From Eubacteriales bacterium (GTDB taxonomy: Bacteria > Bacillota > Clostridia > Oscillospirales > CAG-272), in assembly GCA_045638685.1 (NCBI GenBank), contig JAZUBT010000018.1:12329-76328 (forward strand): DNA of 64,000 nucleotides, in the 5' to 3' direction. A program made the position numbers and the translations under genes. Below, piece by piece: positions 851 to 12,890 of this stretch; within the stretch, counting starts at the first letter, position 1, and the number at the start of each line of letters is the position of its first letter. Below the pieces are notes generated by a model, which was given only the letters and a program-made list of their open reading frames with translations, searched no databases and had not been told where the DNA came from.

Positions 851-893
851 TAAAAAAAAATCAAGTTGAAAGAGCGTTTATTTTCAACTTGAT
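851..893 (-). terminator. Intrinsic terminator closing the dus transcription unit
   Basis: Perfect 12-bp inverted repeat ATCAAGTTGAAA (860-871) / TTTCAACTTGAT (882-893) with a 10-nt loop. On the reverse strand it is followed by a U-run (A-run 852-860 on +). It lies about 20 nt past the dus stop. Confidence 0.75.
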
Positions 894-916
894 AATATTC
901 ATTTTACAATATAGGG

Positions 917-1882
917 TTAAATCAAAGACTTTAATATACTTAAAAGCTCCTCCGCGCTCTCCGACTTGTTAATTTTATCCCTTGCGCCGGAGGCTCCGCG
1001 AAGTCCTTTTATGTACCACCCCAGGTGCTTTCTTGCCTCTCTTACTCCGATATACTCACCCTTGTCCTCACAAAGCATTCGCACGTGGCGGATAGCAACC
1101 GCTATTATCTCCTCCGTTTCGGGTCGGGTATAGCTTTCTCCGTTAAGAGCGCATTTAATTTCTGAAAATATAAACGGATTTCCCATCGCACCCTGACCTA
1201 CCATAAGTCCGTCGCAGTCCGTTTTGCGGAGAAGCGTAAGAGCGTCCTCGCCGCTATAAACTCCGCCGTTGGCAATAACGGGAATTTTAACCTCTTTCTT
1301 TACAAGACGCACCGTTTCTGTATCCACGGGGGGGCTGTAAAGCTGCTGCCTCGTTCTGCCGTGTACCGCAACCGCACTCGCGCCGTTTTGCTCACAAACC
1401 GCGGCAAAATAGGGAGCGTTTATACTGTCTTTATCCCACCCCGTACGTATCTTAACGGTAACGGGAACCGTAAGAGCATCTGAAAGCGCTCTTACGATTT
1501 TACCCGCTAAGGGTGGGTTTTTCATAAGAGACGAGCCCTCTCCGTTTCCCGTAATTTTAGGCATGGGGCACCCCATATTTACATCAACGATAGAAATTTC
1601 GGGATAGGTCTCTATAAGCTTCCCCGCGGCATACGCCATAATCTCCGGCTCCGAGCCGAATATCTGAAGCGCGTACGGGTTCTCCCCCTCCCCCGGCTCG
1701 GCAAGGAGAGCCGTTTTCTTATCCTTGTAGTAAACACCCTTTGCGGAAATCATTTCGCTGACGGTAAGTCCGGCTCCGAATTCTCTCGCAAGAGCACGGA
1801 AGGATTTATCCGTAATTCCTGCCATTGGGGCAAGAACGAGACCGTTTTCTATTTCTACGTTACCTATTTTAAAAGTCGGCAT
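917..1882 (-). CDS. dus: tRNA-dihydrouridine synthase
   Basis: 321 aa. LAPMAGITDKSFR, the FMN/TIM-barrel pattern and the conserved Cys region (NMGCPMPKI) are typical of DusB-type enzymes. Confidence 0.9.
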   Translation of the reverse strand: MPTFKIGNVEIENGLVLAPMAGITDKSFRALAREFGAGLTVSEMISAKGVYYKDKKTALLAEPGEGENPYALQIFGSEPEIMAYAAGKLIETYPEISIVDVNMGCPMPKITGNGEGSSLMKNPPLAGKIVRALSDALTVPVTVKIRTGWDKDSINAPYFAAVCEQNGASAVAVHGRTRQQLYSPPVDTETVRLVKKEVKIPVIANGGVYSGEDALTLLRKTDCDGLMVGQGAMGNPFIFSEIKCALNGESYTRPETEEIIAVAIRHVRMLCEDKGEYIGVREARKHLGWYIKGLRGASGARDKINKSESAEELLSILKSLI

Positions 1883-3313: not shown

Positions 3314-3342
3314 ATTATACCTATAATTACCAATTTTGTCAA
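3314..3342 (-). promoter_or_regulatory. Sigma-A-type consensus promoter for the ACP-hyp-HD-dus unit
   Basis: The reverse strand reads TTGACA (3342-3337), a 17-nt spacer, then TATAAT (3319-3314). It lies about 28 nt upstream of the ACP ATG. Confidence 0.6.
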
Positions 3343-3381: not shown

Positions 3382-4410
3382 TTACCGAAGCTCGGCAATT
3401 TCAAGTATAAGTTTTTCTGTTTTTTCCCAGCCAAGGCACGGATCGGTTATTGATTTACCGTACACGCCTCCGTCGGGCTTCTGACAACCGTCCTCGATAT
3501 AAGATTCTATCATAAGTCCCTTGACAATTTTGTATATATCGCCTGAATGACGCGTGCTGTGAAGTATCTCCTTGGCTATACGCGGCTGCTCCGCCCACTT
3601 TTTTCCGGAGTTTGCGTGGTTGGTGTCAATTATAACCGCAGGATTTACAAGAGAGGAATTTTCGTAATACTCGCAAAGGCGCTGAATATCCTCGTAATGG
3701 TAGTTTGACACGCTTCTTCCGTATCTGTCGGTGTATCCGCGTAAAATCGTGTGCGTAAGAGGATTTCCTTTACTTGTTACCTCCCAGCCCGAATAAACGA
3801 ACGTGTGAGAGTGTTGCCCCGCGGTAACCGAGTTCATCATAACCGAAAAGTCCCCGCTGGTCGGGTTTTTCATACCCACGGGCACGTCAAGTCCACTTGC
3901 GGTCAGACGGTGAAACTGATTTTCAACCGAGCGCGCACCCACCGCAACGTAGGAAAGAACGTCGGCAAGATACTGATGGTTTTCGGGGTAAAGCATTTCA
4001 TCCGCGCAGGAAAACCCTGTTTCGGTAAGCGCCTTTATATGCAGCCTTCTTATTGAAAGGAGACCTTTAAGCATATCCGGAGAGCTGTTTGGATCGGGCT
4101 GATGAAGCATTCCCTTATATCCGTCTCCCGTGGTACGGGGCTTATTCGTATAGATACGCGGCACTATAACTATCTTATCCTTAACCTTTTCCTGAACCTC
4201 ACGCAGACGTGAAATATAATCAAGAACCGCGTCCTCACGGTCTGCGGAGCAGGGGCCGATAATAAGCGCCAGCTTGTTACTCTCTCCTGTAAATATAGCG
4301 TTTAGCTCTGTGTCCGTTTGTTTTTTTGCTGCTCTTGCCTGTTCGGAAACGGGATACATATTTCGTATTTCCTGCAAGGTAGGAAGCTTTTTCTTAAATT
4401 CCATATTCAT
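3382..4410 (-). CDS. aroG: 3-deoxy-7-phosphoheptulonate (DAHP) synthase, type I-alpha-like
   Basis: 342 aa. IIGPCSADRED...PRIYTNKPRTTGDGYKGMLHQPDP parallels the AroG/F/H GPCS...KPRTT..WKG motifs. Confidence 0.88.
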   Translation of the reverse strand: MNMEFKKKLPTLQEIRNMYPVSEQARAAKKQTDTELNAIFTGESNKLALIIGPCSADREDAVLDYISRLREVQEKVKDKIVIVPRIYTNKPRTTGDGYKGMLHQPDPNSSPDMLKGLLSIRRLHIKALTETGFSCADEMLYPENHQYLADVLSYVAVGARSVENQFHRLTASGLDVPVGMKNPTSGDFSVMMNSVTAGQHSHTFVYSGWEVTSKGNPLTHTILRGYTDRYGRSVSNYHYEDIQRLCEYYENSSLVNPAVIIDTNHANSGKKWAEQPRIAKEILHSTRHSGDIYKIVKGLMIESYIEDGCQKPDGGVYGKSITDPCLGWEKTEKLILEIAELR

Positions 4411-4487
4411 AACTTATAATCCTCCGTCGTGTGTTCGCTTATTCAGTATGCGCACACCTATTCCCTCCGCCATTCCGCGGTTTTCCT

Positions 4488-5363
4488 TTAATTTTTATTC
4501 TTTATTTCACGGCTCTCGCACCTTTTTCTTCTTTCGGTGGAAAGACGCATCATAGCGCGCACAGCCTCGGTGTCGCCACCCTCAATACATTTCTTTAAAT
4601 ATCGGAACCTTTCCTCAAACAGATCCATCTGCGCGACAAGCTCGTTCTTGTTGAGTGAAAAAAGCTCGCTCCACATTTCGTCGTTTATCTTCGCTATACG
4701 GGTAAGGTCTCGGAAGGAGTCCCCCGTGTACTCTATAATCTCGTCGGTATCCTTACATACCATCAGAGAAACCGCGATACAGTGTGTAAGCTGTGAAAGA
4801 AACCCTATCATCTCATCGTGCTTTTCGGGGGTGAGCACAGAGATACTTTTAAATCCGAGCACCTCGCCGAGCGCCTTGCAGCTCTCCACCGCTCGCTCGC
4901 TGTTTTTTTCGGTCGGAGTTACGATGTAGTTTGCTCCCTTAAAAATATCCTTATTCGCGTTTTCAACACCGCTTGTCTCCCGTCCCGCCATCGGATGCGC
5001 TCCTATAAATTCAAGGTCGTCTCTTAGAAGTCTCTGCACCTCGTAAACGACACTTCCCTTAACACCCGTAACGTCGGTAAGAAGCGCTCCGCTTTTTATG
5101 AACCGCTGATTTTCTTTAATCCAATTTATAAATATGTGTGGATAAAGCGCGAAAACAATCAGGTCAAATTTTCCGATATACTCACCGTCGGCACTCCTTT
5201 TTCCGTGCCGGATTATACCCTTTTTCAGCGCATAGTCTATCGCGTCGGAGCGCACGTCTATCGCGCCAACCTCGTAACCCGCATCGCTTAAAGCCTCGGC
5301 GTAGCTTCCACCGATAAGACCAAGCCCTACTATAAGTATTTTCTTGTCCGTACTAAGCTTCAT
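4488..5363 (-). CDS. tyrA: Prephenate dehydrogenase
   Basis: 291 aa. N-terminal Rossmann motif ILIVGLGLIGGSYA and the HPMAG motif. It overlaps the aroA stop. Confidence 0.85.
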   Translation of the reverse strand: MKLSTDKKILIVGLGLIGGSYAEALSDAGYEVGAIDVRSDAIDYALKKGIIRHGKRSADGEYIGKFDLIVFALYPHIFINWIKENQRFIKSGALLTDVTGVKGSVVYEVQRLLRDDLEFIGAHPMAGRETSGVENANKDIFKGANYIVTPTEKNSERAVESCKALGEVLGFKSISVLTPEKHDEMIGFLSQLTHCIAVSLMVCKDTDEIIEYTGDSFRDLTRIAKINDEMWSELFSLNKNELVAQMDLFEERFRYLKKCIEGGDTEAVRAMMRLSTERRKRCESREIKNKN

Positions 5364-6621
5364 TTTCTGTTTCCACCTTTAGTCCGAGAGAGATAAGCGC
5401 GCTGAAAAAGTCGGGGTAGCTTTTGGCTATCGCCTCTGCACCCTCTATTTCACATCCTACAAGCGCGCCGAGAATCGAAAGCGCCATAACTATTCTGTGA
5501 TCGTTATGACTTTGGCAGGGCACAGAAGGGGTTTTAAGCGTACCCCTATGCACGTTCACCGAATTTTCACCGACCGTAACGTCTATTCCGAATTTTTCAA
5601 GCTCCTTCGTCATAGCTACCGCACGGTCGCTTTCCTTTATTTTGAGGCGCTTTGTTCCGACAAAACATCCGCCTCCCCTTGCCGCGGCTACAGCGAAAAG
5701 AACAGGGCCAAGGTCGGGGCAGTCCGAAATATCAATTTCCCCGACACCCGTATGTAGCTTTTCAAACAACTCCACACACACCTTATCCCCTTGCAGGCTG
5801 TCTTTGTTTAAACCGGAAATTTTAATTCCGTTTTCCAAAGACGCTCTTTCTCCTTCAGACGCCGTCTCGCCAAGCGCAAGAAGTGCTGCACCGTTTGACC
5901 AATCTCCCTCAACCGTTAAATCACAGCTTTCGTAGCTTTGTCCACCTTTGACGTAAAACGTGTTTTTTTCCGTCTCCGCAACCCGAATGCCGAACTTAGA
6001 AAGCGTGTCGAGCGTAATATCAATATACCCTCGGCTTTCAACGGGCGGCAAAACCTTTATCACACTATCCCCTTTAAGGAGCGGCAGGGCAAACAAAAGC
6101 CCCGTAACAAACTGACTGCTGACGTTTCCCGGCAAAACGTACTCTCCCGCGGTAAGATTTCCGAAAACAGATATACCCTCTCCGTTATTTTGGCAGATTA
6201 TACCCTTTTCCGCAAAAAGCTTTTCATATACCTCTATACCGCGCTCCATAAGTCGCTTTGAGCCTATAAATTCGGCTTTCTGTCCAAAAACAAGCGATAC
6301 GGGTATAAAAAAACGCATAGTGCTTCCGCTTTCACGGCAGGGAAAAATTATATTTTCCCCAAAATACCGACAGCTCTCTACCCGCTTCATTTCCTTACCG
6401 ACGCCTACCACTTTAAGCGTACCTCCGCTTAAAGCACACCTTGCTCCAAGCGCACGTGCGCAGTCAAGCGTCGCCAGAACGTCCTCGTTTTCGGAAACAC
6501 CCTTTATTATGCTTTCCCCCTTAGCGAGAGCAGCGCAAAGTATCATTCTGTGGGCGTAGCTTTTTGACGGCGGTGCCGTTACGCTCCCTCTCGGACACCC
6601 CGCACTGATTTTAATTTTCAT
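5353..6621 (-). CDS. aroA: 3-phosphoshikimate 1-carboxyvinyltransferase (EPSP synthase)
   Basis: 422 aa. PPSKSYAHRMILCAALA and DHRIVMALSI are EPSP-synthase signatures. Confidence 0.9.
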   Translation of the reverse strand: MKIKISAGCPRGSVTAPPSKSYAHRMILCAALAKGESIIKGVSENEDVLATLDCARALGARCALSGGTLKVVGVGKEMKRVESCRYFGENIIFPCRESGSTMRFFIPVSLVFGQKAEFIGSKRLMERGIEVYEKLFAEKGIICQNNGEGISVFGNLTAGEYVLPGNVSSQFVTGLLFALPLLKGDSVIKVLPPVESRGYIDITLDTLSKFGIRVAETEKNTFYVKGGQSYESCDLTVEGDWSNGAALLALGETASEGERASLENGIKISGLNKDSLQGDKVCVELFEKLHTGVGEIDISDCPDLGPVLFAVAAARGGGCFVGTKRLKIKESDRAVAMTKELEKFGIDVTVGENSVNVHRGTLKTPSVPCQSHNDHRIVMALSILGALVGCEIEGAEAIAKSYPDFFSALISLGLKVETENEA

Positions 6622-6750
6622 TTTACTGTTCCTTATAAATTATACTTATACGATTTCGAAATAACGGCTCAATTTCATTTCCGGCAAGAAATCAGCCGCT
6701 TTTTAAATAACTTTTTAGAATAAAGTTTCAACCGTTTATCGGATACCGTT

Positions 6751-7206
6751 TCAACCGTTTGTCTCTGAAAGCTTTTTCACAAGTATATCGATAGCGCGTA
6801 GATACCCGTTAAAGCCCTCTCCCGAAACCGTCGCGACACAGACGTCGCGAACGTAGCTTATCTGTCTGAAATCCTCTCGCCTTGAAACGTCGGAAATATG
6901 CACCTCAACCGTTGGTATTCCGACAGCCTTTACCGCGTCGGCAATAGCAATGCTTGTATGGGTATATGCCGCAGGATTAAATACTATGCCGTCCGTCTTT
7001 TCAAAGTACGCCCTTTGCAGTGCGTCAACAAGGTCGCCCTCGTGGTTTGACTGATAAAACTGAACGTTAAGGGAAAGCTTTTCCGCATAGCTTGTTATCA
7101 TATCACAAAGCTCTTTATATGTACCTTTTCCGTAAATTTCAGGCTCGCGAATACCTAAAAAATTTATATTCGGGCCGTTAAGAATAAGCAGCTTCATATT
7201 TTTCAA
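6751..7206 (-). CDS. aroQ: Type II 3-dehydroquinate dehydratase
   Basis: 151 aa. LILNGPNINFLGIREPEIYG and NPAAYTHTSIA are type II dehydroquinase motifs. It overlaps the upstream gene by 4 nt. Confidence 0.9.
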   Translation of the reverse strand: MKNMKLLILNGPNINFLGIREPEIYGKGTYKELCDMITSYAEKLSLNVQFYQSNHEGDLVDALQRAYFEKTDGIVFNPAAYTHTSIAIADAVKAVGIPTVEVHISDVSRREDFRQISYVRDVCVATVSGEGFNGYLRAIDILVKKLSETNG

Positions 7207-8447
7207 CTTCTTTCCGTATGTTTTTTTATTATCTCCTCAGCGACAGCCGAAATGCTTTCGTTACCGTTAATGACAAAATCGCAGCATGAAAGATATATCG
7301 GGTAACGTTCATTATAACGGCTTTCGAGCGCACTAAGGCTTGACGAAAGCGGTCTGTCCGAGGTAAAAATCAGCTTTTCAAGTTCTCTGTCAATGAAATA
7401 GATTTTCCCGTTTTGTTTAAGGCGCATAACGTTTTCCGTATCAAGCACGGCGCCACCGCCCGTAGCTATAACGCATCCGCTTTTTTTAGAAACGGAGTGT
7501 ATAACCTCATTCTCTACCTTACGAAACGCGCCTTCTCCGTTTTTCTCAAAGTACTCGGAGATACTCGTTCCTATGACCTTTACTATCTCGTCATCGCTAT
7601 CGACAAGCTCTCTGCCGAGCCGCTCGGAAATAGCCCGTCCAACCGCGCTTTTTCCTGAGGACGGCATACCGACAAGCACTATATTTTCTTTTTCCGACTC
7701 GACTCCCGAAAAGGCCTTGTCAATAAGAGTTTCGTCTGCATCCCTATCAAGAAAGAGAGCTGACGCATATACCGCCTGCGCTGCCAACATATAAAGCCCA
7801 CCGCACACGGGTATTCCTCTCTCCGTTGCTTCCGCAATAAGCTCGGTACGGAGAGGGTTATATATCGCGTCAACGACACCCGTAAGGCAGGGAAACGCAG
7901 AAAGCTCGATAGGTTTTCCCTCCTGACGCGAAAACATACCAACCGGCGTGGTATTAATAATAACCTCAGCGTCGGTGTGATTTTTCACTGCCTCTCCGTA
8001 AGTAACGCTTCCCTCCGCGCCGCTGCGAGAGACCTTTATTATCTCCCTTGCTCCGTAAGATTTCGCTACGGCAAAAGCGGTTTTACAGGTACCGCCCGTG
8101 CCGAGAATCATTACCTTTTTATTTTTAAGCTCTATGCCGTACTTATTAAGCATCGCGCTCATTCCGACAAAATCCGTGTTGTAGCCGTATAGCTTTCCGC
8201 CACGGTTGACTACCGTGTTTACAGCGCCAACCGCTGTGGCGGTATTGGATATAAAGTCAAGGCAGGGCATTACCTTTTCCTTATAAGGAATGGTAACGTT
8301 TATCGCCTTAAAATCGCGTTTTTCAAAAAAGGCTTCAAGCTCCGACGGCAAAATCTCTAAAAGCTTATAATCATAGTCGGCGATTTTCGCGTGTATCTCA
8401 CAGGAGTAGCTGTGAGTAAGATGCTCGCCTATAAGTCCGTATAGCAC
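7203..8447 (-). CDS. aroE/aroK: Bifunctional shikimate dehydrogenase / shikimate kinase fusion
   Basis: 414 aa. The N-terminal ~250 aa are AroE-like (YGLIGEHLTHSYS...NVTIPYKE...NTDFVG...LGTGGT). The C-terminal ~165 aa are AroK-like (P-loop LVGMPSSGKSAVGR, DSDDEI). Confidence 0.85.
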   Translation of the reverse strand: MLYGLIGEHLTHSYSCEIHAKIADYDYKLLEILPSELEAFFEKRDFKAINVTIPYKEKVMPCLDFISNTATAVGAVNTVVNRGGKLYGYNTDFVGMSAMLNKYGIELKNKKVMILGTGGTCKTAFAVAKSYGAREIIKVSRSGAEGSVTYGEAVKNHTDAEVIINTTPVGMFSRQEGKPIELSAFPCLTGVVDAIYNPLRTELIAEATERGIPVCGGLYMLAAQAVYASALFLDRDADETLIDKAFSGVESEKENIVLVGMPSSGKSAVGRAISERLGRELVDSDDEIVKVIGTSISEYFEKNGEGAFRKVENEVIHSVSKKSGCVIATGGGAVLDTENVMRLKQNGKIYFIDRELEKLIFTSDRPLSSSLSALESRYNERYPIYLSCCDFVINGNESISAVAEEIIKKHTERS

Positions 8448-8537
8448 TTTTCTTCCTTTCCGCTACTTAACGTAGCTTTTTCAGTATCCCCGTATCCCGA
8501 TTTTATGTAATTTAACTTAGGAAACAGGGTAGATAAA

Positions 8538-9602
8538 TCATCTTCCCGACTGCAAAATATCGAATATAACGATAGCCGCCACGCTATCAATTACGGGGCA
8601 TATTCTCCTAATAATAGCGGGATCGTGTCGTCCGTTTACCGAAATATCCGCGTTTTCGTTCTTTACAAAATCAACCGTTTTCTGCTCTCTCGCAATAGAC
8701 GGCGTAGGCTTAACCGCGCAGCGGAAGGTAATGGGCATACCGTTTGTAATTCCGCCGTTAATTCCACCGTTATTGTTTGTTTCCGTTACTACCATACCGT
8801 TTTCGTAACGCATAGCGTCATTTGCCTCGCTGCCGAGCTTATCCGCAAAGCCAAAGCCAAGCCCAAACTCAACACCCTTAACTCCTCCGATACTGAAAAG
8901 GGCATGGGAAAGAAGGCTCTCCACACTGTCAAACCACGGCTCTCCGTACCCTGCGGGCATTCCGTAAATCACCGTTTCGGTAATACCCCCTATGCTGTCA
9001 AGAGCAGATTTTGCGGAGAGGATTTTCTCTGTCATTTTTTCTCCCTTTTCCTTATCAAGGGTAGGAAAGGAGACCTTTTTCAGCGCATCTATATCGGCGG
9101 AAATATCGGAAAAGGCTCTATCCGACACACCTCCGCACTCGGAGATATGCGTACCTATGACGATACCCTTTTCTTTAAGAGCGGGAATTAAAATTCCGCC
9201 AACGGCAACAAGCGCCGCGGTGATACGTCCCGAAAAATGACCGCCTCCGCGGTAGTCCTCGAAGCCTTTATATTTAACGTGCGCCGTGTAGTCTGCGTGA
9301 GACGGACGCGCAACGCCGTAGTTATAGTCGCCGCTTCTGACATTTTCATTCGGCACCACGATACAAAGAGGAGTCCCCGTCGTTTTACCGTTAAAAACAC
9401 CGCTGAGTATCTTAAAATCGTCCTGCTCGCTCCTTGCCGTATCGGTAGAAAGCGACGGACGACGGCGGGAAAGCTCGGCGGAAATAAATTCCTCGTTTAC
9501 CGTAATTCCGGGCGTAAGACCGTCGATAACCGCCCCCACGGCGGGGCCGTGGCTCTCTCCAAACAGAGTTACCGTAATATTCTGACCAAACGTATTTTTC
9601 AT
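8538..9602 (-). CDS. aroC: Chorismate synthase
   Basis: 354 aa. TLFGESHGPAVGAVIDG, RPSHADYT and GRHDPA are chorismate-synthase signatures. Confidence 0.92.
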   Translation of the reverse strand: MKNTFGQNITVTLFGESHGPAVGAVIDGLTPGITVNEEFISAELSRRRPSLSTDTARSEQDDFKILSGVFNGKTTGTPLCIVVPNENVRSGDYNYGVARPSHADYTAHVKYKGFEDYRGGGHFSGRITAALVAVGGILIPALKEKGIVIGTHISECGGVSDRAFSDISADIDALKKVSFPTLDKEKGEKMTEKILSAKSALDSIGGITETVIYGMPAGYGEPWFDSVESLLSHALFSIGGVKGVEFGLGFGFADKLGSEANDAMRYENGMVVTETNNNGGINGGITNGMPITFRCAVKPTPSIAREQKTVDFVKNENADISVNGRHDPAIIRRICPVIDSVAAIVIFDILQSGR

Positions 9603-9682
9603 AAATTCTTACCTTAATTTATCTTTATTTGCTTGTTATCAAAAGCAGTTTATACCTGCATTCAAAAACGCCTTTTCCTTTA

Positions 9683-10690
9683 TTATCCTATTAAAGAATC
9701 AACCGCGCCCCCTATGCTATCGAGCGGCACGTCCTTTATACAGTAGCTTCCTATCTCCTCACAGAAAACAGCGGAAACGGTGTTTTCCTTCATTTTCTTA
9801 TCGTGAGTGATATAGTAGCGCAGCTTTTCCCACGGATATGGTATCTCGAAAGGCAACCCGTACTTTTTCAGAAGCGACAAAATCCGCTCCCGTACCCCCT
9901 CGGACGACATCGGAAGCATTCCCATGCCAACGCATTCTCCGTGCAGAAGCCTTCCGCTCTCGCTTTCGATTGCGTGTCCTACGGTGTGCCCGAAATTAAG
10001 CACCTTGCGAAGATGCCTTTCCTTCGGATCCTTTTCAACGACGTCTCTTTTAATACAAAGAGAGCGTCGGATTATTTCCTCAATATCAGAGTAAACGTTT
10101 TCGCTGTTTTCAATCAACTCAAAAAGCTGTGCATCAAAACTTGCCGCCATCTTTATCGCCTCGACAAGTCCGGAGAAAAACTGACGTCTGTCAAGCGTTT
10201 CAAGCGTACAGGTGTCGATTATTACGCCTTTTGGCTGACAAAAGCTACCCACCGCGTTTTTCACTCCGCAAAAGTCAATAGCCGTTTTTCCACCGATTGA
10301 GGAATCCAGCTGCGAAAGCAGTGTCGTCGGAATATTGTAAAAATCAATTCCCCTCATATAACACGACGAGACAAAGCCCGCAAGGTCTCCGACCACGCCG
10401 CCTCCGACCGCAACCACGCAGTCGTCTCTTGTAAATCCGTTTGTAAGCATAGTCTTAAGCAGCTTTTCAAAGCTTTCCATGCTTTTGCTGCTCTCTCCCG
10501 ACGGCAAGGCCACTTTAATCGCCGTTTTACATTGCGCGGCAACCGTATCGGCGTATTCCTCGGGAACACCTGTATCGGTAACCACCAAAACGCGGCGGTT
10601 AAGATTAATAAGCTCCCCCGCTCTTTTCAGCGCGCCCCTTTCAAGGGTTACGTCATAGCTCTCCTGTCCGAGCCTAACCGGAATTATCAT
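9683..10690 (-). CDS. aroB: 3-dehydroquinate synthase
   Basis: AroB motifs present (GGGVVGDLAGF, NFGHTVGHAIE). The track ORF starts at 10702. I prefer the ATG at 10690 (MIIPVRL) because GGAGAG lies 4 nt upstream. The alternative start at 10702 abuts a hairpin. Confidence 0.88.
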   Translation of the reverse strand: MIIPVRLGQESYDVTLERGALKRAGELINLNRRVLVVTDTGVPEEYADTVAAQCKTAIKVALPSGESSKSMESFEKLLKTMLTNGFTRDDCVVAVGGGVVGDLAGFVSSCYMRGIDFYNIPTTLLSQLDSSIGGKTAIDFCGVKNAVGSFCQPKGVIIDTCTLETLDRRQFFSGLVEAIKMAASFDAQLFELIENSENVYSDIEEIIRRSLCIKRDVVEKDPKERHLRKVLNFGHTVGHAIESESGRLLHGECVGMGMLPMSSEGVRERILSLLKKYGLPFEIPYPWEKLRYYITHDKKMKENTVSAVFCEEIGSYCIKDVPLDSIGGAVDSLIG

Positions 10691-10704
10691 ACTTCTCTCC
10701 ATTC

Positions 10705-10727
10705 CGCTATCCGCAGATAGCTACACA
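10705..10727 (-). other. Stem-loop motif UGUGUAGCUAUC-loop-GGAUAGCG just 5' of the aroB start (copy 1 of 2)
   Basis: The reverse strand reads TGTGTAGCTATCTGCGGATAGCG (stem GCTATC/GATAGC). A near-identical element sits 5' of dpaA at 14548-14571. Confidence 0.5.
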
Positions 10728-10764
10728 GTAAATAAGACAAGTGTTTCGTTCTTTGCCTTCCGTT

Positions 10765-11865
10765 TTATTTAACGTTATCCGCGTAATAGCTTCCTACCAT
10801 ACGGAGCTTTGCGCAGACAGCGGAAAGCTCGCGCAGCATATCGCTTCCGTTTTCGGTGTTAATGCTTCCCTCCGCTTCAAGATAGAAATAATAGTTCCAC
10901 TGAAGCTCCTTCATAGGACGTGAGCGGAGATTACGCATATTAAAGCCGTGCGCTCCGATAATATTAAGCGCCTTTGCGAGCGAGCCCGCCTCGTTCTGAA
11001 CGGTGAATACTAAAATAAAATTCTCATCGTCCCGTCTTACACCTGCTGCGCCGCGGTTTTGCGCGCGTGAGAACGCGGCAAAGCGTGTAGTATTGTTTTT
11101 GTTATCGTTTATATCCTTATCAAGAACGGTAAGTCCGTAAAGATCCGCGGTCTCTGCCGAGGCTATCGCGGCAACCGTAGTATCGCCAAGCTCACTTACG
11201 TATTTAGCGGCAAGCGCGGTATTTGAGTAGCTTTTTGTACCGTATCCCGCTTTTCTGATATATTCCGAACATTGCTCAAGCGCCTGTGTGTGGCTTACGA
11301 CAGTTTTTACCGTCTCACGCGTTGCGCCCTTCGGCGCTATAAGGCAATGGGAAATCGGAATATCTGCAATTTGATTTACGTAAAGGCTTCCGGAAAACAT
11401 AAGGTCCATAACCGCGCCGACCTCACCAGCGTAGCTGTTTTCAATCGGTATAACCGCGCAGTCATATTCTCCGTTTTCAACCGCCTTATACGCATCGGCA
11501 AAATCGGAATATTCGGTAAGCGTCGCGTCCGGAAACATACGCTTTGCGGCGGCGTAGGCATACGCGCCCTTTGTTCCACAGTAGGTTACCTTAGCTCCGC
11601 CCATTATCTTCTCCTGATATTTGCAGGAAACGTCAATGGCGCTTTTAAGGAACTGAACATAGTACCCCTCAAACTCCCCGTTCTTTATAAGCGAGCGGTT
11701 TTTGTTAATAAGCTCTGCTTCCCTGTCCGTATCGCGTACAGAAAGTCCGTGCGTTTTTTTATATTCGGCTATACGCCCCGCGACCTCCATTCTTTCCTCA
11801 AAAAGCTTTGCCATCTCGCTATCGATACGGTTAATTTCTTTTCTGCACTCATCAAGTCCGTTCAT
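10765..11865 (-). CDS. pheA: Bifunctional chorismate mutase / prephenate dehydratase (P-protein) with C-terminal ACT domain
   Basis: 366 aa. An N-terminal helical CM domain (RKEINRIDSEMAKLFEERMEV) is followed by a PDT domain (VTYCGTKGAYAY...IPIENS) and an ACT-like tail. Confidence 0.9.
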   Translation of the reverse strand: MNGLDECRKEINRIDSEMAKLFEERMEVAGRIAEYKKTHGLSVRDTDREAELINKNRSLIKNGEFEGYYVQFLKSAIDVSCKYQEKIMGGAKVTYCGTKGAYAYAAAKRMFPDATLTEYSDFADAYKAVENGEYDCAVIPIENSYAGEVGAVMDLMFSGSLYVNQIADIPISHCLIAPKGATRETVKTVVSHTQALEQCSEYIRKAGYGTKSYSNTALAAKYVSELGDTTVAAIASAETADLYGLTVLDKDINDNKNNTTRFAAFSRAQNRGAAGVRRDDENFILVFTVQNEAGSLAKALNIIGAHGFNMRNLRSRPMKELQWNYYFYLEAEGSINTENGSDMLRELSAVCAKLRMVGSYYADNVK

Positions 11866-11926
11866 TCTCTTTTCCTCATTTACCTTTTTTAATAAATTTC
11901 TTTTCAGTCTTACCTACCGAAAACTT

Positions 11927-11957
11927 AAAAAAGCGACCTCCGCAAAGGAAGCCGCTT
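11927..11957 (-). terminator. Intrinsic terminator (attenuator hairpin 2) in the pheA leader
   Basis: Reverse-strand RNA is AAGCGGCUUCC-UUUGC-GGAGGUCGCUU: 11 bp including 2 G-U pairs, running into UUUUUU. It lies 29 nt after the leader-ORF stop and 61 nt before the pheA ATG. Confidence 0.7.
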
Positions 11958-11986
11958 ATGGTTTTTATTATAAAACCCTCCCCGTA

Positions 11987-12151
11987 TTACACCGAGGCGC
12001 GTCCCCACCCTTGCAGATGCGTTCTACCGAAAAAATAATAAAAATAGGAGTACGCAAAAAATCGTACTCCGTAGGTAAACGCAGTATTGGCATTAACGGT
12101 AGCTTTAGAGACAGAAATACGGCTTACGTTTTTAACTGCTGAAATATTCAT
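11987..12151 (-). CDS. Candidate Phe/Tyr-rich leader peptide (54 aa)
   Basis: Absent from the track (<60 aa). SD GGGAGG (12164-12159) lies 7 nt before the ATG at 12151. Translation is MNISAVKNVSRISVSKATVNANTAFTYGVRFFAYSYFYYFFGRTHLQGWGRASV*. Nine of 11 consecutive codons (31-41) are Phe/Tyr. It sits directly upstream of the Phe/Tyr biosynthesis operon. Confidence 0.55.
   Translation of the reverse strand: MNISAVKNVSRISVSKATVNANTAFTYGVRFFAYSYFYYFFGRTHLQGWGRASV
12027..12070 (-). promoter_or_regulatory. Terminator-like hairpin 1 embedded in the leader ORF
   Basis: GGAGUACG-AUUUUUUG-CGUACUCC (8 bp) is followed by UAUUUUUAUUAUUUUUUC. The loop holds codons F31-F32 and the U-rich tail is codons Y36-F41. 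Confidence 0.5.
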
Positions 12152-12183
12152 TTTCCTGCCTCCCAAAAGTTAATTATGAAAAA

Positions 12184-12212
12184 ATTATACTCCGTTTTCC
12201 ACCGTTTGTCAA
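12184..12212 (-). promoter_or_regulatory. Sigma-A-type consensus promoter of the aromatic operon
   Basis: The reverse strand reads TTGACA (12212-12207), a 17-nt spacer, then TATAAT (12189-12184). Confidence 0.7.
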
Positions 12213-12318
12213 TAATCTTTTTGCGGTTTTAACACTTTGTTCATTATTGCATTTTCAGTTTTTTTCAACTATTTATATAGAATTAACCGAATGTTTTTCG
12301 GAAAATTCCGTTTTTTCT

Positions 12319-12723
12319 TTAAGAAATCTTTGATACAAGCTCCTCGAAAGCCTCCTCAAGAGGAAGCATAAATTCCATTATATCGTCATTCCACTGCTCG
12401 TAAAGCGAGTCGTATTCGTGCTCCCAGCTGTCAATTATCTCGGTTCTGGTATCAAGGTCATCGGGCGGACAGCCTCCGGGGAAAAGCGCGTTTGCGTTTT
12501 CTACAATGGAAGCAACCTCATCCATTCCCGCATTATAGAGGTCTTCAACCGCATCCTCGGCGTAATCTCCGCAGTAGCTTTCATAGTAGCTGAGAAGCCC
12601 CGTGCCATTAACCGCATCAATTATATTTTTTATGTTAAAAACAGCTCTTTCCTCGTTTGTAAGAGAAAAATAATCGTCCTCAGCCGCCTCTGTAATTCTT
12701 GCCCAGATTTTGTTCCAGCTCAT
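12319..12723 (-). CDS. DUF4375 / DMP19-like protein (function uncertain)
   Basis: 134 aa, very acidic. LTNEERAVFNIKNIIDAVNGTGLLSYYESYCGDYAEDAVEDLYNAGMDEVASIVENANALFPGG follows the pattern I recall for the DMP19 C-terminal family. SD GAGGAGG precedes the ATG. Confidence 0.45.
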   Translation of the reverse strand: MSWNKIWARITEAAEDDYFSLTNEERAVFNIKNIIDAVNGTGLLSYYESYCGDYAEDAVEDLYNAGMDEVASIVENANALFPGGCPPDDLDTRTEIIDSWEHEYDSLYEQWNDDIMEFMLPLEEAFEELVSKIS

Positions 12724-12862: not shown

Positions 12863-12890
12863 ATTATACAGCGATTTTTCCTTTTGTCAA
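12863..12890 (-). promoter_or_regulatory. Near-consensus promoter for the DUF4375-like gene
   Basis: The reverse strand reads TTGACA (12890-12885), a 16-nt spacer, then TATAAT (12868-12863). This leaves a 5' leader of roughly 130 nt. Confidence 0.55.

Follow-up and report, generated by a model that had tools for sequence, protein, structure and literature searches.

Escherichia coli controls pheA through pheL (RF01859), a leader open reading frame (ORF) with a run of Phe codons that precedes a terminator ahead of pheA, the competing antiterminator being chosen by the position of the ribosome. In the trpL leader of the same species, a pause hairpin synchronizes the ribosome with RNA polymerase, and pairing of the leader's ribosome-binding site with a downstream segment is reported to limit repeated translation. 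Here we describe a candidate system of this kind in a 64,000-nt stretch of DNA from Eubacteriales bacterium (assembly GCA_045638685.1, contig JAZUBT010000018.1). This whole stretch is the window to which all positions refer, and the leader elements all lie on its reverse strand. We think it likely, on the strength of sequence comparison, that the locus is a ribosome-mediated (leader-peptide) transcription attenuator, which would control an eight-gene shikimate/Phe/Tyr operon by sensing charged tRNA-Phe and tRNA-Tyr. Its elements, their conservation, their covariation and their geometry can be read from the alignments described below, and from these we propose how translation, ribosome stalling, polymerase pausing and a response to amino acids might be linked.

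A model's reading of this locus from the DNA alone, hereafter the original prediction, had set the same idea against the background that aromatic operons of Firmicutes are usually described as controlled by T-boxes or TRAP. That background needs correction, as leader-peptide attenuators for His and Leu are known in Firmicutes, namely in his operons of the Bacillus cereus group, Peptostreptococcaceae and Erysipelotrichales and in ilv-leu of Staphylococcus aureus; most of these are predictions from comparative genomics, and several stand in place of T-boxes (PMC2965389; PMC9413887; PMC5794164). For aromatic amino acids, a Phe-Tyr-Phe leader, aroR, attenuates the aroF (DAHP synthase) operon of Corynebacterium glutamicum, according to the summary of Neshat et al., 2014 in PMC11802643. 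In Bacillus subtilis, the 162-nt leader ORF bmrB, upstream of bmrCD, has a terminator-like structure inside its coding region and alternative antiterminator and anti-antiterminator structures (PMC4191407). The literature searched, whose coverage is incomplete, contains no account of a Phe/Tyr leader in Clostridia, and none of its Firmicute leaders serves aromatic amino acids or comes from Oscillospiraceae-like Clostridia.

Results

A leader ORF and two hairpins precede pheA

Reading the reverse strand from 11700 to 12500, we recovered the promoter, Shine-Dalgarno (SD) sequence, ORF, Phe/Tyr (F/Y) run and both hairpins exactly where the original prediction had placed them. A sigma-70-type promoter (12184-12212), with TTGACA at 12212-12207, a 17-nt spacer and TATAAT at 12189-12184, matches at 12 of 12 positions in a consensus scan and would place the transcription start near 12177; relatives have equivalent TTGACA..TAtAAT promoters 20-35 nt 5' of the leader SD. 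The SD, GGGAGG (12164-12159), lies 7 nt before an ATG at 12151, from which 54 uninterrupted codons (11987-12151; MNISAVKNVSRISVSKATVNANTAFTYGVRFFAYSYFYYFFGRTHLQGWGRASV) run to a UAA stop at 11989-11987. All 11 F/Y codons of this ORF fall within codons 25-41: codons 31-41 (12061-12029) read FFAYSYFYYFF, and F25 (12079-12077) and Y27 (12073-12071) form an additional cluster at 12071-12079.

This first cluster stands immediately 5' of an 8-bp hairpin within the ORF, P1 (12047-12070; -11.7 kcal/mol), formed by GGAGUACG and CGUACUCC around an 8-nt loop, AUUUUUUG, that contains the UUU UUU of F31 and F32. A ribosome stalled at F25 or Y27 would cover the 5' arm of P1. The U-rich tail that follows (12027-12046; UAUUUUUAUUAUUUUUUC) is at the same time the third F/Y cluster, Y36 F37 Y38 Y39 F40 F41. 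Downstream of the stop codon lies an intrinsic terminator, T2 (11927-11957; -16.4 kcal/mol), in which AAGCGGCUUCC, a UUUGC loop and GGAGGUCGCUU (11957-11931) form 11 bp, two of them G-U, and run into six U residues ending at 11927, 61 nt 5' of the pheA ATG at 11865. An independent scan of the window flagged both P1 and T2 as terminator-like.

The pheA product carries chorismate mutase, prephenate dehydratase and ACT domains (Pfam). By Pfam assignment and ORF layout, pheA is followed on the reverse strand by aroB, aroC, an aroE-aroK fusion, aroQ, aroA, tyrA and a DAHP synthase gene (3382-11865), so that the whole common shikimate pathway and both the Phe and the Tyr branches are represented. 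The tight same-strand spacing of these eight genes suggests that they form one operon; the same assignments and layout place no trp genes in it.

The Phe/Tyr frame is kept in relatives

The original prediction had cautioned that a U-rich terminator tail gives Phe codons in any reading frame. For a test of the frame, loci were picked without reference to ORFs, solely for two tandem terminator-like hairpins 55-115 nt apart, which gave 38 non-identical loci. In every one of the 38, the frame opened by an SD and ATG was the richest in F/Y codons or tied for it, which answers that caution. Nearly all of these loci have 30-41 codons between the SD-ATG and the P1 tail downstream of it, and the distance from the stop of this frame to the second hairpin is 22-55 nt; in the other two frames, which read I/L/F, the stops are scattered.

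Leaders of the family hold 8-14 F/Y codons in three clusters around the conserved hairpin. F/Y codons are rare early in the leaders (14/535, or 2.6%), yet 25 of 26 leaders have at least one among the five codons that precede P1, and more follow in the P1 loop and again in the tail. Outside the F/Y run the peptide is not conserved; two loci, L003 and L007, have a frameshift 3' of the run, but in both the downstream box described below and the position of the stop are retained. W49, which had been listed as a further aromatic residue, is not part of the signal: the family shows no enrichment of Trp codons, and trp genes are absent from the operon.

P1 is conserved as RNA

In a nearly ungapped MAFFT alignment of 26 leaders (A2), scored against 500 shuffles and a slid-partner control, 11 of 13 P1 pairs show changes on both sides, a result that none of the 500 shuffles matched, and 75% of cells are paired compared with 22-53% when the partner is slid. 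The compensatory changes in P1 are not synonymous: GG..CC to AC..GU turns G..S into T..C, and U-A to C-G turns V..Y into A..G. Because they alter amino acids, it is the RNA that is selected here and not the peptide. We also considered VRFFAY as a conserved arrest peptide and rejected it, since its residues are simply what the P1 stem encodes, and the compensatory changes alter them. Likewise set aside was the idea that the U-rich tail terminates the upstream gene: a consensus promoter stands between them, and the element stays with pheA operons whose upstream genes are unrelated.

T2 and a competing pairing covary

Compensatory changes are present in T2 as well as in P1. In alignment A3, pairing holds in 97% of T2 cells, and double-sided changes occur at 9 of 11 pairs, which 0 of 500 shuffles matched. 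The original prediction had also proposed, by eye, that GCAAGGGUGGG (12014-12004) can pair with CUUCCUUUGC (11951-11942). When the window transcript is truncated ahead of the T2 3' arm, as in nascent RNA, this pairing is the minimum-free-energy fold, which extends it: GCAAGGG (12014-12008) pairs with CCUUUGC (11948-11942), GGG (12006-12004) with CUU (11951-11949), and CGC (12001-11999) with GCG (11955-11953). The 5' strand, region 2 (11998-12014, GCAAGGG-U-GGG-GA-CGC-G), lies 9-25 nt 5' of the stop and is a diverged copy of a GCAAAGGA(CGC) box that in relatives is conserved, covaries and falls within the footprint of a ribosome at the leader stop. Its partner, region 3 (11957-11942), consists of the 5' arm and loop of T2, which makes the two helices mutually exclusive. 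Between them, minimum-energy folds alone place two small hairpins in a spacer (11960-11997) whose sequence is not conserved among relatives, namely CCUCG..CGGGG (11997-11980), with the UAA stop in its loop, and GGUUUU..AAAACC (11977-11960).

The box is kept across different reading frames in relatives, where it is translated as C-K-G, P-Q-R or R-K-G, and it changes in step with the terminator loop and arm, as in GUAAAGGGCGC:GCGUCCUUUAC, AUGUAGAAGCC:GGCUUUCUACAU, CCGGAGCUGC:GCGGCUUCGG and UCUGGGA:UUCCAGA. Against dinucleotide shuffles the antiterminator duplex reaches p <= 0.05 in 15 of 31 leaders. Cognate pairs outscore non-cognate ones overall (permutation p = 0.001), although the matrix is noisy, and the covariation score is 0.374 compared with 0.221 in shuffles (0/500 match). 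When RNAalifold was given transcripts cut before the 3' arm, the antiterminator was the only consensus helix. The fold of the whole window leader (z = -2.75 against shuffles) is, taken alone, only suggestive. The case that the helices and the ORF are more than chance is weak within the window alone and strong across relatives.

Ribosome position and the antiterminator

In 31 leaders, region 2 starts a median of 17 nt before the stop codon (range -8 to +43), and in 28 of the 31 it lies at least 13 nt after the last codon of the run. Because region 2 is past the run and near the stop, a stalled ribosome leaves it free and a terminating ribosome sits on it. We modeled the ribosome as a footprint from -15 to +12 nt around the A site, an assumption in which sizes and coupling behavior come from general knowledge, and ended the transcript before region 4. 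Under these settings the mean probability that the T2 5' arm is already paired upstream was 0.73 with the ribosome stalled and 0.55 with it at the stop (Wilcoxon p = 1.6e-6, n = 31); the closest relative, L001, gave 0.86 and 0.28.

The leader SD is itself within a hairpin

A further conserved element, overlooked in the original prediction, is a hairpin that sequesters the SD, P0 (12106-12164). In it, GGGAGGCAGGAAAAUG (12164-12149), containing the SD and start codon, pairs with CCGUAUUUCUGUCUCUA (12122-12106), which encodes codons 10-16. P0 is part of the minimum-energy fold (duplex -16.2 kcal/mol, p = 0.04 against dinucleotide shuffles), and SD:anti-SD pairing of different sequence occurs at p <= 0.05 in 15 of 29 relatives. 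The pairing explains the unusually long N-terminal part of the leader and the recurrent 'SVS' codons.

Distribution and variation of the family

A scan anchored on PheA, with one genome per species, gave 36 Clostridia loci from uncultured Oscillospiraceae, Acutalibacteraceae, Christensenellaceae-like and 'Eubacteriales' metagenome-assembled genomes. About 22 of the 36 share one layout, always at the start of an operon: a consensus promoter, an SD-ATG ORF of 24-63 codons, F/Y clusters before, in and after P1, a stop and a strong T2. The ORF with its F/Y run and terminator lies directly upstream of pheA in 13 loci, and in 9 further loci the leader is found approximately 0.8-1.4 kb upstream of pheA, ahead of a gene for a DUF554 membrane protein, a GNAT protein or an aminotransferase. 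Homologous leader ORFs in relatives have 47-63 codons. A metagenome scan added many more leaders on gut contigs, with several peptide types: ..AVRFFAYC.FYYF..; ..ASRFFEGGYYYYYF..; ..ALHFFCFSYF.., some members of which have Phe codons only; and short leaders of 21-33 codons such as MKNFVENKFYYYYFQNNVSFCKGR.

Amino-acid specificity appears to vary within the family, as the type C leaders L092, L103 and L122 hold 8-9 Phe codons and no Tyr codons and most other leaders mix the two. In L002 (1494-3601), and also in L004, L005 and L009, the leader and its terminator are separated from pheA by a DUF554 gene (Pfam PF04474, E = 2.5e-69), and the same is probably true of L060, L125 and L137. The DUF554 protein, possibly a transporter, thus seems to share its control with aromatic amino-acid synthesis. 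Four Acutalibacteraceae-like loci (L026, L028, L030 and L031) have short leaders (MIRYYSYFYYFK.., MTKYYYFYYFNLD.., MCFANKYFYYF..) and a terminator about 1.36 kb upstream of pheA, preceding an aminotransferase gene located before pheA.

Two other features were seen near leader loci. An AT-rich, partly palindromic motif, TTATAATnATAATTG, recurs just 5' of the pheA SD, within the last ~60 nt, in L079, L081, L017, L018 and L138; in some loci motifs of this type lie 120-260 nt downstream of the leader terminator, and they may represent an operator or a second promoter. L017 also has a cobalamin riboswitch (879-1068, reverse strand; RF00174, 41.6 bits) upstream of its leader locus, on the opposite strand.

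Genomic surroundings in the window

Upstream of the leader are a DMP19-like gene and dpaB/dpaA, which marks the organism as spore-forming. The reverse strand has two more sigma-70 promoters with a perfect 12/12 match to the consensus, one at 12863-12890, upstream of the DMP19-like gene, and one at 3314-3342, just 3' of the DAHP synthase gene, where the aromatic operon ends. The aroE-aroK fusion (7203-8447, reverse strand) is a 414-aa ORF with a shikimate dehydrogenase substrate-binding domain at residues 5-79 and a shikimate kinase domain at residues 263-409. When the whole 64 kb was scanned for other leader-like ORFs followed by a terminator, only the Phe/Tyr leader was convincing.

Discussion

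A model for Phe- and Tyr-dependent read-through

Comparison with relatives strongly supports the original reading of this locus as a ribosome-mediated attenuator, and each refuting check named there that could be made on sequence came out on its side. Like other members of that class, it has a leader ORF with its own SD and ATG, an F/Y cluster that matches the products of the operon, a terminator before the first gene, an antiterminator exclusive with it, and a geometry suited to both. Once transcription had begun, a ribosome would load on the leader SD before P0 forms or in competition with it, and P0 would probably limit the leader to about one round of translation. Polymerase arriving at P1 and its U-rich tail would most likely pause, and would release if no ribosome came, until a ribosome melted P1 and the two were synchronized. 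The ribosome would meet F/Y codons just before, within and after P1. If Phe or Tyr were scarce, it would stall between codons 25 and 41, and region 2 (12014-11998) would be free to pair with 11955-11942, blocking T2 and allowing read-through into pheA. If both were abundant, the ribosome would reach the stop at 11989, where its footprint would cover region 2 and the junction hairpins; T2 would then fold, and transcription would end at 11927. By holding or discarding polymerases until the ribosome melts P1, P1 and its tail may also provide an 'off' state for untranslated RNA where the leader has no helix protecting region 2.

Several observations weigh against this model. Within the window, the antiterminator duplex alone is not significant (-14.7 kcal/mol, z = -1.0, p = 0.16), and the cognate test places the window 13th of 17. 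For the covariation counts, duplex prediction helped to locate the box windows, which were joined to the terminator by an artificial AAAA linker; the compared sequences are moreover phylogenetically related, and the shuffle p-values overstate their independence. A protector (anti-antiterminator) helix between regions 1 and 2, which is typical of leader-peptide attenuators but not universal, could be detected neither in the window (z = +0.57) nor in L001. The helix is significant in 6 of 31 leaders and is present in L003/L007, L019, L082/83 and L086; elsewhere, P1 with its U-tail may substitute for it. At one locus, L123, a promoter-like site is followed at once by a T2-like hairpin (AGCGGUUUCCUUUAGCUUAGGGGAAACCGCU) with a U-rich tail, ~110 to 30 nt 5' of pheA, and there is neither a leader ORF nor P1; this hairpin is perhaps a relic, or perhaps under a different kind of control.

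In the folding simulations, the difference between stalled and terminating ribosomes is small for the window (0.64 versus 0.54). Its antiterminator has the top 7 bp at 19-25 nt 5' of the stop, just beyond the assumed -15 nt edge, and only the 3' half of region 2 is within the footprint. The free transcript folds as the stalled one does, so folding alone predicts antitermination for untranslated RNA. Equilibrium folds of the complete leader under ribosome masks always favor the terminator, at a probability of ~0.9 or more in every state in the window; they were uninformative and were replaced by the folds cut before the 3' arm. Because the terminator wins at equilibrium, the switch must be kinetic, as in classical attenuators. 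The model relies on assumed co-transcriptional kinetics, and transcription-translation coupling is reported to be weak in Bacillus.

Alternative explanations

The original prediction called P1 a terminator. A terminator-like hairpin with a U-tail is indeed there, but instead of being a regulated terminator it may serve as a pause or a coupling checkpoint. A possible refinement of our model, not a replacement for it and one that we hold only tentatively, is that P1 and its tail form a genuine intrinsic terminator (T1) that removes transcripts without a ribosome on or near P1, after which T2 decides on Phe and Tyr; T1 would then take the place of the missing 1:2 helix and enforce coupling. By the terminator d-score (an old formula used with modern energy parameters), P1 with its tail is as terminator-like as T2 across the family: it averages 10.8 over 26 leaders and is positive in 18, T2 averages 2.0, and type C leaders have P1 stems of 11-12 bp followed by U6-U7. 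The hairpin is flagged in the window too, although with its 8-bp stem and 8-nt loop it is borderline there (d = -6.1). A ribosome stalled at any of the flanking F/Y codons would cover one arm of it, and folding alone offers untranslated RNA no default-off state in a window that lacks a 1:2 helix. There is precedent in B. subtilis bmrB, whose 54-codon leader ORF contains an experimentally established terminator (PMC4191407). UUU is over-used relative to UUC in the leaders, making up 87% of their Phe codons compared with 64% in the genes of the window, but the U-run is also forced by the Phe codons themselves. T1 is dispensable for the basic switch, since in L086, L100 and the short leaders (L098, for example) P1 lacks a U-rich tail or is missing altogether, and sequence cannot separate pausing from termination. 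Equally tentative is the suggestion that a P1 U-tract doubling as the F/Y codon run serves, together with P0, as a 'coupling checkpoint' that lets only polymerases with a ribosome at P1 reach T2.

It is improbable that an RNA-binding protein or other aromatic-responsive factor recognizes GCAAAGGA / UUCCUUUGC and controls T2 in trans, with the ORF incidental. The primary sequence of box and terminator loop is conserved beyond what pairing alone requires, and L123 keeps a UUUCCUUU loop with no ORF, but nucleotides shared by two alternative helices are expected to evolve slowly, and where box and loop do change (L133, L139, L017/18, type C) they change together. A protein-only mechanism also leaves the conserved ORF, SD, frame, F/Y placement and stop position unexplained, and no TRAP-type triplet repeats were found in 11866-12212 (four (G/U)AG repeats with 2-nt spacers and at most one mismatch; 3-nt spacers were not scanned). 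A functional small hydrophobic protein, with ordinary or chance hairpins around it, is less probable again. Gene callers do predict the leader ORFs, some of them on at least 1000 contigs, and public protein sets label them only 'hypothetical protein'; yet the N- and C-terminal peptide is not conserved, P1 explains the VRFFAY motif, the C-termini of L003 and L007 are frame-shifted, and the element is always tied to the start of a pheA operon, whatever the upstream gene. As a separate observation, the 56-aa and 48-aa leader peptides share their 90%-identity clusters with long proteins that look unrelated, ABC transporters of 300-577 aa for example; this is probably an artefact of how short, low-complexity sequences cluster. 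Least probable of all, to the point of being hardly credible, is a T-box or other known riboswitch. T-boxes control aromatic operons in many Firmicutes, but the Rfam scan called for by the original prediction gave no covariance match that would explain the hairpins. No Rfam 15 family reached its gathering score anywhere in the window or at the leader of 40 related loci, which yielded one tRNA and one cobalamin riboswitch away from it; in E-value mode on 11700-12400 the only leader-type match was Phe_leader RF01859, at 18.2 bits against a gathering score of 55 (E = 2.7) and mainly over the terminator, with no T-box.

Significance and comparison with known systems

If ribosome-mediated attenuation is the right reading, these leaders would constitute a new, widespread and unannotated family built on a classic control principle, with two extra conserved modules, P0 and P1, whose proposed roles are those given above. 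The family would explain how the whole shikimate/Phe/Tyr pathway is regulated in many uncultured Clostridia of the human and animal gut, including Oscillospiraceae such as Vescimonas. It would lend itself to modeling and an Rfam entry, would turn many 'hypothetical proteins' into leader peptides, and through regulon membership could hint at the function of other genes, the DUF554 membrane protein among them. P1 and P0 would be a natural system in which to study how ribosome-mediated attenuation is synchronized in Firmicutes. Should the coupling checkpoint exist, it would replace the anti-antiterminator helix and let leader-peptide attenuation work in Clostridia, where coupling is possibly poor.

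With E. coli pheL the locus shares its target and overall logic. It differs in having 54 leader codons compared with about 15, mixed Phe and Tyr codons, an eight-gene operon under its putative control, an extra hairpin within the ORF and another over the SD, and no detectable 1:2 helix; it also belongs to a different phylum and scores below the RF01859 threshold. The pause hairpin and ribosome-binding-site pairing of trpL are functional analogues of P1 and P0. The trpL pause hairpin, unlike P1, is the 1:2 protector and has the regulatory codons in its 5' arm; P1 is separate, with codons before it, in its loop and in its tail. For a synchronizing role of P1, the pause-dependent ribosome-mediated attenuation reported in Bacillus is a precedent.

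The C. glutamicum aroR leader, which resembles the locus in mixing Phe and Tyr codons, is actinobacterial and has only three regulatory residues, and Tyr supply is reportedly without effect there (PMC11802643). The Firmicute His and Leu leaders serve other amino acids and operons and are short, with 3-5 tandem codons. The resemblance to B. subtilis bmrB is limited to architecture, since the ribosome there is stalled by antibiotics and the leader has no amino-acid codon run (PMC4191407). In bmrB it is the terminator within the ORF that is regulated, whereas in the window the antiterminator logic would be carried by T2, 3' of the leader stop.

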